Of a stretch of DNA of 64,000 nucleotides, positions 181 to 404 are shown piece by piece. This DNA is from Escherichia coli (GTDB lineage: Bacteria > Pseudomonadota > Gammaproteobacteria > Enterobacterales > Enterobacteriaceae), in the NCBI RefSeq assembly GCF_009931435.1, contig NZ_CP043414.1; one strand, given 5' to 3'. The position numbers and the translations under genes were made by a program. Under the pieces are notes generated by a model, which did no database searches, was not told the DNA's origin, and saw nothing but the letters and a program-made list of their open reading frames with translations. Position 1 is the first letter of the stretch. Each line of letters begins with the position of its first letter.

Positions 181-404
181 AGGGTGACGGTGCACCACGC
201 CTGACTGAAGAACTGCGTGCTCAGAGTTACCACTTCAGCGCATAACCGTGGCAGCAGGCCCGGACAGAACAAACGGCTCAGGACATTATCGGTAGGGGAC
301 GCACTGCTAGTCTGTAAACTGAACCGACTGGGGCGCAGTATGCGGCATCTTGCCGTGCTGTTGGAGGAGCTGTGAGAACGTGGTATTAACTTTCGTGCTC
401 TGAC
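181..404 (+). pseudogene. pinH: Pin/Hin-family serine recombinase (DNA invertase) remnant, pinH-like, fragmented and rearranged
   Basis: Translation 241-404 reads RPGQNKRLRTLSVGDALLVCKLNRLGRSMRHLAVLLEEL-stop-ERGINFRALT, the conserved resolvase/invertase core, interrupted by a stop; 181-240 encodes a C-terminal-like piece (GDGAPRLTEELRAQ) placed upstream. Confidence 0.5.

Follow-up and report, generated by a model that had tools for sequence, protein, structure and literature searches.

A composite pinH relic beside ypjA in Escherichia coli, probably left by an IS3-family insertion and later deletions

The 64,000-nucleotide stretch of E. coli DNA analyzed here (the window) carries at positions 161 to 404, and perhaps to 430, a non-functional orthologue of the K-12 pseudogene pinH. 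We consider it highly probable (about 90%) that this relic is a composite, in which the left end of an IS3-family element and a 96-bp fragment of insF are joined to about 150 bp (possibly about 175 bp) from the middle of a serine invertase gene, all in the same orientation, as the result of an IS3 insertion followed by deletions. The two alignments that carry this reading meet within the relic: window 256-404 is identical to the invertase gene pinE at 123 of 149 positions (83%, E 5e-41, blastn), and window 166-260 is identical to K-12 IS3 at 77 of 96 positions (80%, E 4e-20, blastn). The relic has little biological weight, being a neutral pseudogene scar that has long been listed as pinH in K-12 and that PGAP flags as a partial recombinase. 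What the analysis offers is a corrected anatomy of this scar: an IS3 end, an insF fragment and an invertase mid-fragment, apparently held together by short-homology deletion joints. The features referred to below are as follows.

161..178, + strand: left terminal inverted repeat (IRL) of the IS3 family, TGATCTTACCCAGCAATA, identical at 18 of 18 positions to the first 18 nt of IS3
166..260, + strand: internal IS3 fragment, insF/orfB codons about 57-85, IS3 nt 528-623
256..260, + strand: IS3/pin junction, AGGCC, attributable to IS3 nt 619-623 (AAGCC) or to pinE nt 124-128 (AGGCC)
256..404, + strand: serine-invertase (Pin/Gin/Hin type) core fragment, pinE nt 124-272, codons 42-91
373..375, + strand: in-frame TGA stop, replacing the Arg codon of ELRERG in intact invertases
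405..430, + strand: possible further pin sequence, weak, pinE nt 277-302 after a 4-bp deletion
441..5406, + strand: ypjA cassette, comprising a leader of about 380 bp and the autotransporter gene (822-5396); the right bound of the relic
5545-5565: degenerate attR of the ssrA island, ATCATGAT-GCTGGCG, compared with K-12 ATCATGATTGGTGGGCTGGCGG (psaA)
23625-24854: P4-type integrase
25019-25381, - strand: tmRNA gene (ssrA), the start of the island

Orthologous loci, genomic position and provenance

In K-12, pinH (b2648) has the same neighbors as the relic, namely ileY, ypjC and ypjB or the fused ypjCB, and ypjA, and its junctions fall at the same positions. The alignment to K-12 pinH and to intact invertases that the earlier note had proposed as a check thus bears out the pin assignment, and the relic is the orthologue of this already known pseudogene, to which the IS3 remnant adds a minor refinement. 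The two alleles differ at 8-9% of positions, and the window has TGA at 373-375 in place of the K-12 TGC. A three-way alignment with orthologues is collinear over about 830 bp common to all three, with a mean column identity of 90%, and the relic itself diverges by 6-13% among four alleles (window, K-12, RMDEC465 and EC10). In other strains, the PGAP label reads 'recombinase family protein, incomplete, missing N-terminus and C-terminus'. Further to the left, a strong hairpin at window positions 31-58 (AAGGGGTTACG...CGTAACCCCTT) resembles a terminator working in both directions and presumably serves ypjCB, the gene upstream, whose end falls just outside the window.

The full locus was found in 3,003-3,051 of 5,426 complete E. 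coli genomes; the remaining genomes are without the whole ileY-ypjCB-pinH-ypjA segment and match via paralogues only. More than 3,000 complete genomes have these truncations as well, so the proposal that resequencing might restore an intact recombinase frame does not apply here. The relic is neutral debris that about half of the sequenced E. coli have inherited, and, since its junctions are fixed, the scar can be used in phylogenetic work to mark the ileY-ypjA segment stably. One E. coli relic ORF runs past ERGI into the interior of ypjA, out of frame (window about 2650-2754), which points to an allele in which a deletion has joined the pin relic to the ypjA interior.

Among GTDB species representatives, the sole exact match to a relic-specific 28-mer was the 2.8-kb contig DEQI01000374.1, in a search that misses alleles with any change in the 28-mer, such as EC10 with its 2 mismatches. 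This contig, assigned to the Firmicutes MAG 'Planococcaceae bacterium UBA3370', is 92% identical to window 1-538 and has almost certainly entered the bin as contaminating E. coli DNA. A literature search for pinH and ypjA returned nothing on the locus; the 'PinH invertase' of PMC3936929 is another protein, the invertase of the O157 prophage CP-933H.

On its right side, the relic is bounded by the ypjA cassette. This cassette has a paralogue at ymgJ-ycgI near minE, where the equivalents of window 441-792 (89% identity) and 5052-5406 (97% identity) are contiguous (strain Ecol_517); the paralogue of 441-792 is found at ymgJ-ycgI in most E. coli, at 87-89% identity. Since these two segments are directly joined there, the ymgJ-ycgI locus represents a second, internally deleted copy of the ypjA cassette, and ycgI is a ypjA-type autotransporter minus the equivalent of window 793-5051. 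The K-12 ychF-ycgV intergenic region had also been considered as a paralogue of the ypjA leader and showed no similarity to it; the real paralogue is ymgJ-ycgI. Two small genes, the ORF at 637-774 (annotated as 'ATPase' or 'hypothetical' in other strains) and ymgJ, sit inside the leader common to both cassettes. Alleles of the 5' part of ypjA (822-1790) are unusually divergent, at 85-92% identity with 199 gapped positions against RMDEC465, although the leader upstream is 96-98% identical, a contrast that points to recombination or diversifying selection acting on the passenger domain of the adhesin.

The earlier note had placed the relic at the distal end of an island. However, the relic lies about 5 kb beyond the attR of the ssrA island present in the window, on the far side of the ypjA cassette. 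The attR is degenerate, keeping just about 7 nt of the ssrA 3' end, and its sequence parallels the K-12 psaA context. The island in the window (RepL, MobQ, TraD, a type IV pilin, a PilV-like protein and Lamassu LmuA/LmuB) is unlike K-12 CP4-57 in its contents, and the ssrA islands of K-12 (CP4-57) and RMDEC465 end in a CbtA-family toxin-antitoxin module, with the same relic beside ypjA. Since the same relic occurs beside differing ssrA islands, it belongs with the older DNA that flanks them, from ileY to the ssrA attachment region.

The island itself (about 5560-25019) resembles a mobilizable island, as about 52% of a 24-kb query spanning it was matched at 93% identity. The matched element is annotated with RepL, a MobQ relaxase, TraD, a BfpA-like pilin and PilV, and it adjoins a tRNA-Ser gene in other strains; the SIR2/TIR pair of its annotation lies where the match was not shown to reach. 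Beside the integrase is a Lamassu anti-phage pair on the minus strand, LmuB (20247-22019, PADLOC E 1.8e-224) and LmuA (21991-23079, E 2.1e-137), with no NCBIfam model for either. The PilV-like gene (18723-20186) matches Pfam Shufflon_N, and no repeated sfx-like inverted repeats of a shufflon were detected in the 17.5-25 kb interval.

Which kind of element once brought the invertase to this locus is a separate matter. The relic could be the end of an older mobile element, either a prophage or an island, that occupied the ileY-ssrA interval and carried the invertase with or without ypjA. We regard this as possible but on balance doubtful. On the one hand, about half of E. coli are without the whole ileY-ypjCB-pinH-ypjA segment, this segment is bordered by a tRNA gene, ileY, on one side and by the attR of ssrA islands on the other, and invertases of the Pin/Gin/Hin type are normally phage-borne. 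On the other hand, a search that used PinE, InsE/InsF and IS3 and reached 6 kb to either side turned up neither an att-like repeat nor an integrase remnant nor any other phage gene, and the closest phage invertases are just 75-82% identical to the relic. The older-element reading is compatible with the composite origin of the relic and adds only a claim about its provenance.

The invertase fragment and its functional capacity

The conserved invertase core that the earlier note recognized (KLNRLGRSM...ERGINFR) is real, and so are the internal stop in its frame and the adjoining ypjA gene. With PinE, the prophage e14 protein from K-12, as the query and window 1-830 as the target (tblastn), PinE residues 39-91 were matched at 72% identity with an E value of 7e-23, or 1.4e-15 for the core match when the whole 64-kb window is the target. 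Frame +1 of window 247-405 translates as RGSRPGQNKRLRTLSVGDALLVCKLNRLGRSMRHLAVLLEEL*ERGINFRALT, and the Pfam Resolvase model (PF00239) is matched with 38.8 bits (the cut-off, its gathering score, is 23.3) over model positions 48-101 of 145 only. The TGA at 373-375 is allele-specific: it is present in the window and in RMDEC465, and the corresponding codon is TGC (Cys) in K-12 and EC10.

The fragment has no start codon and is truncated at both ends, so that about 27% of the invertase gene survives. The catalytic-serine segment of these enzymes is the YVRVST motif, with Ser-10 in PinE numbering; neither the window nor the 6 kb on each side of three orthologous loci matched PinE residues 1-38, which comprise it. 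At the other end, everything past about residue 91-101 is missing, PinE 137-184, representing the C-terminal HTH domain, gave only chance-level matches (E 0.33-1.5), and no Pfam HTH domain was detected. A PinE search of the whole 64 kb found no second invertase piece. The pin homology is firm up to position 404 and possibly reaches 430, the extension at 405-430 coming from a gapped local alignment with a collinear 13-nt core (11 of 13 identical), whose score was equaled in 70 of 2,000 shuffles (about 0.035).

Intact invertases in E. coli genomes and phages have at most about 83% DNA identity to the relic. Because even the nearest of them are only 75-83% identical, the relic is not a recent copy of an extant invertase gene; it is old. 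When the consensus relic peptide was searched against 5.8 billion protein clusters, the close relatives were all ORFs of 52-92 aa labeled E. coli; the seven that we inspected were all ORF calls on the pinH relic, and no closer intact invertase emerged from this search.

Comparisons of alleles in the pin frame give pN/pS values between 0.75 and infinity, and the window and K-12 differ there by 0 synonymous and 11 non-synonymous changes. Values of about 1 or higher indicate that purifying selection is absent in the pin frame. In Din invertase systems, a pair of inverted crossover sites of about 26 bp (gix, hix or pix) flanks the invertible segment. The gix/hix-type pattern AAACCNNGGTTT (up to 1 mismatch) matched once in the 64-kb window, at 29846, compared with 3.1 matches expected, and the half-site TTATCCAAAACC (up to 2 mismatches) matched four times, compared with 7.5 expected, with none of the matches near the relic. 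An inverted-repeat scan of positions 1-6000 revealed nothing notable. These results agree with the earlier statement that neither an invertible segment nor crossover sites are evident in the window. Furthermore, the Fis-dependent recombinational enhancer lies in the 5' part of Gin/Hin/Pin genes, and the first 123 nt of the invertase gene, which would include it, are missing from the relic. The relic falls short of a Din invertase on every functional point and cannot work as a recombinase.

The relic might nevertheless have been co-opted, either as part of the ypjA promoter or leader or as a source of a 72-92 aa resolvase-domain polypeptide with some activity, for example one that interferes with prophage invertases; we find this improbable. 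It does share the orientation of ypjA and precedes that gene by 420-660 bp, with junctions kept in more than 3,000 genomes, and gene callers predict ORFs of 72-92 aa in some alleles. Expression of such a truncated polypeptide is possible in the stop-free alleles, where the predicted ORF is uninterrupted. However, the pN/pS values given above argue against a role for the peptide, as do stops and other substitutions that vary by allele. A promoter scan of positions 1-900 found nothing on the + strand, Rfam gave no credible match in positions 1-6000, and the leader that is conserved with the ymgJ-ycgI paralogue does not start until 441, past the right end of the relic. Moreover, at least one strain lost part of the relic by a deletion running into ypjA, and linkage to ypjA and ypjCB explains why the relic has been retained elsewhere. 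It is very improbable, in our judgment, that the invertase once switched the adjacent ypjA-type adhesin by inversion, in a Hin-like manner, until it was frozen by IS3, or that stop-free alleles express a 72-92 aa resolvase-domain product by which prophage invertases are modulated.

The IS3-family remnant and the deletion joints

The DNA to the left of the invertase core had been taken for a C-terminal-like segment of the same gene, moved ahead of the catalytic core by ancestral rearrangements, which we find scarcely credible: frame +3 of 183-227 (GDGAPRLTEELRAQS) loosely resembles the start of the PinE linker and HTH (GGRRPKLTPEQWAQA, 7 of 15), but its match to PinE 137-151 is at chance level (E 0.61, 830-bp target) and includes no Pfam domain, whereas the same DNA fits IS3 nt 528-623 (with the E value of 4e-20 given above) and InsF (76-78%), and an exact 18-nt IS3 terminal repeat precedes the supposed C-terminal piece. 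The pieces are thus not out of order, as a single invertase piece is present and the other is the insF fragment with the IS3 left end. Of the span originally proposed for the feature, 181-404, the end holds, and the start has to be moved to 161, at the IS3 terminal repeat. Likewise, the description of the feature as a dead Pin/Gin/Hin remnant stands, while its scrambled invertase segments give way to an IS3 insertion with subsequent deletions. More generally, short motif likeness, here GxxPxLTxE, is unsafe evidence for displaced gene pieces.

The terminal repeat agrees with IS3A nt 1-15, as annotated, at 15 of 15 positions; the full agreement of 18 of 18, including the terminal TGA, is with the left end of IS3B and its flank. 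The right end of IS3A ends in the same TGATCC terminus, and the IRL is conserved in the K-12, RMDEC465 and EC10 alleles. The K-12 copy IS3A is annotated as 1,255 bp long, without the terminal TGA of the IRL, and IS3B, at 1,258 bp, has it.

In the internal IS3 fragment, frame +3 reads GDGAPRLTEELRAQSYHFSA*, with stops at 177-182 and 243-245. In the window allele, its translation matches InsF residues 65-81 at 76% (E 6e-6); the K-12 and EC10 alleles have 87-89% DNA identity to IS3 and match InsF 57-83 at 78% (E 1e-8). With window 1-262 as the query against the 5,426 complete E. coli genomes (28 Gb), positions 166-260 matched thousands of features annotated as 'IS3-like element IS3 family transposase' (80%, E 3e-13), and IS3 copies on Shigella plasmids are 82% identical to the fragment. 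An interior that is 80-89% identical to IS3 indicates an old copy or a diverged IS3 relative; the parent element may have been such a relative rather than IS3 itself, as the interior is only 80% identical in the window allele. The left repeat is exact over its 18 nt, but the right inverted repeat of IS3 was not found in the window or in the orthologous loci. Neither an InsE match nor a DDE region was detected in these sequences, where only InsF aa about 57-85 are left.

The IRL is fused straight to IS3 nt about 541, with about 520 bp deleted in between (the IRL interior, orfA and the start of orfB). Window 166-178 can be aligned to either partner, as TTACCCAG in the IRL or as TTACCCGG from IS3 nt 528, the two having TTACCC(A/G)G in common, and this double fit marks the internal deletion junction of IS3. 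One Shigella plasmid, pSLG231, seemed to have the same junction between the IRL and the interior; it proved to carry a differently truncated IS3. At the second joint, the IS3 alignment stops at 260 and the pinE alignment begins at 256, which leaves an overlap of 5 bp; from this we infer a microhomology deletion joint that would be internal to both genes. All four alleles break at the same junctions. The pentamer at the second joint is AGGCC in the window and in RMDEC465, AGGTC in K-12 and AGGGC in EC10, the latter two each having a single substitution. The tblastn and blastn searches with PinE, InsE/InsF and IS3, which covered the window and 6 kb to each side at three orthologous loci, revealed no other pin or IS3 pieces.

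On the composite reading, the history of the locus would have begun with a prophage- or plasmid-type invertase gene within the variable ileY-ssrA interval. An IS3-family element would then have inserted upstream of this gene or into its 5' part. Three deletions would have followed: one between the short homologies TTACCCAG and TTACCCGG, removing IS3 nt about 19-540; a second from IS3 nt 624 through the right end of the element and the first 123 nt of the invertase gene, leaving the joint A(A/G)GCC; and a third in which the 3' part of the invertase gene was lost at the edge of the ypjA cassette. All of these events would be older than the divergence of the E. coli lineages that bear the segment. 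Both the order of events and the mechanism, microhomology or illegitimate deletion, are suggested by the junction sequences alone, and no intermediate that kept more of IS3 or more of the invertase was found at the locus.

Comparison with known systems

The relic is homologous to the Din-family invertases (PinE of e14, Gin of Mu-like phages, the invertases of P2/Fels-2-like phages and Hin) over PinE residues 42-91. Its identity to pinE is 83% in DNA and 72% in protein, and phage invertases have 75-82% DNA identity to it. The DRLGRS-type motif of these enzymes reads NRLGRS in the relic, and ERGINFR is common to both. Unlike Din invertases, however, the relic is without the Ser-10 segment, the dimerization helix, the HTH, a start codon, the 26-bp crossover sites and an invertible segment.

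Compared with a full IS3 (insE/insF), about 9% of the element is left: orfA, the DDE catalytic domain and the right inverted repeat are gone, whereas the exact 18-nt left repeat and 96 bp of insF are retained in the correct relative orientation. In K-12 pinH, both parts of the composite recur, with 91.9% identity to the window in the pin piece and 91.6% in the IS3 piece. The b2648 annotation corresponds to window 244-482 and leaves out the adjoining IS3 remnant (161-243), which belongs to the same scar.
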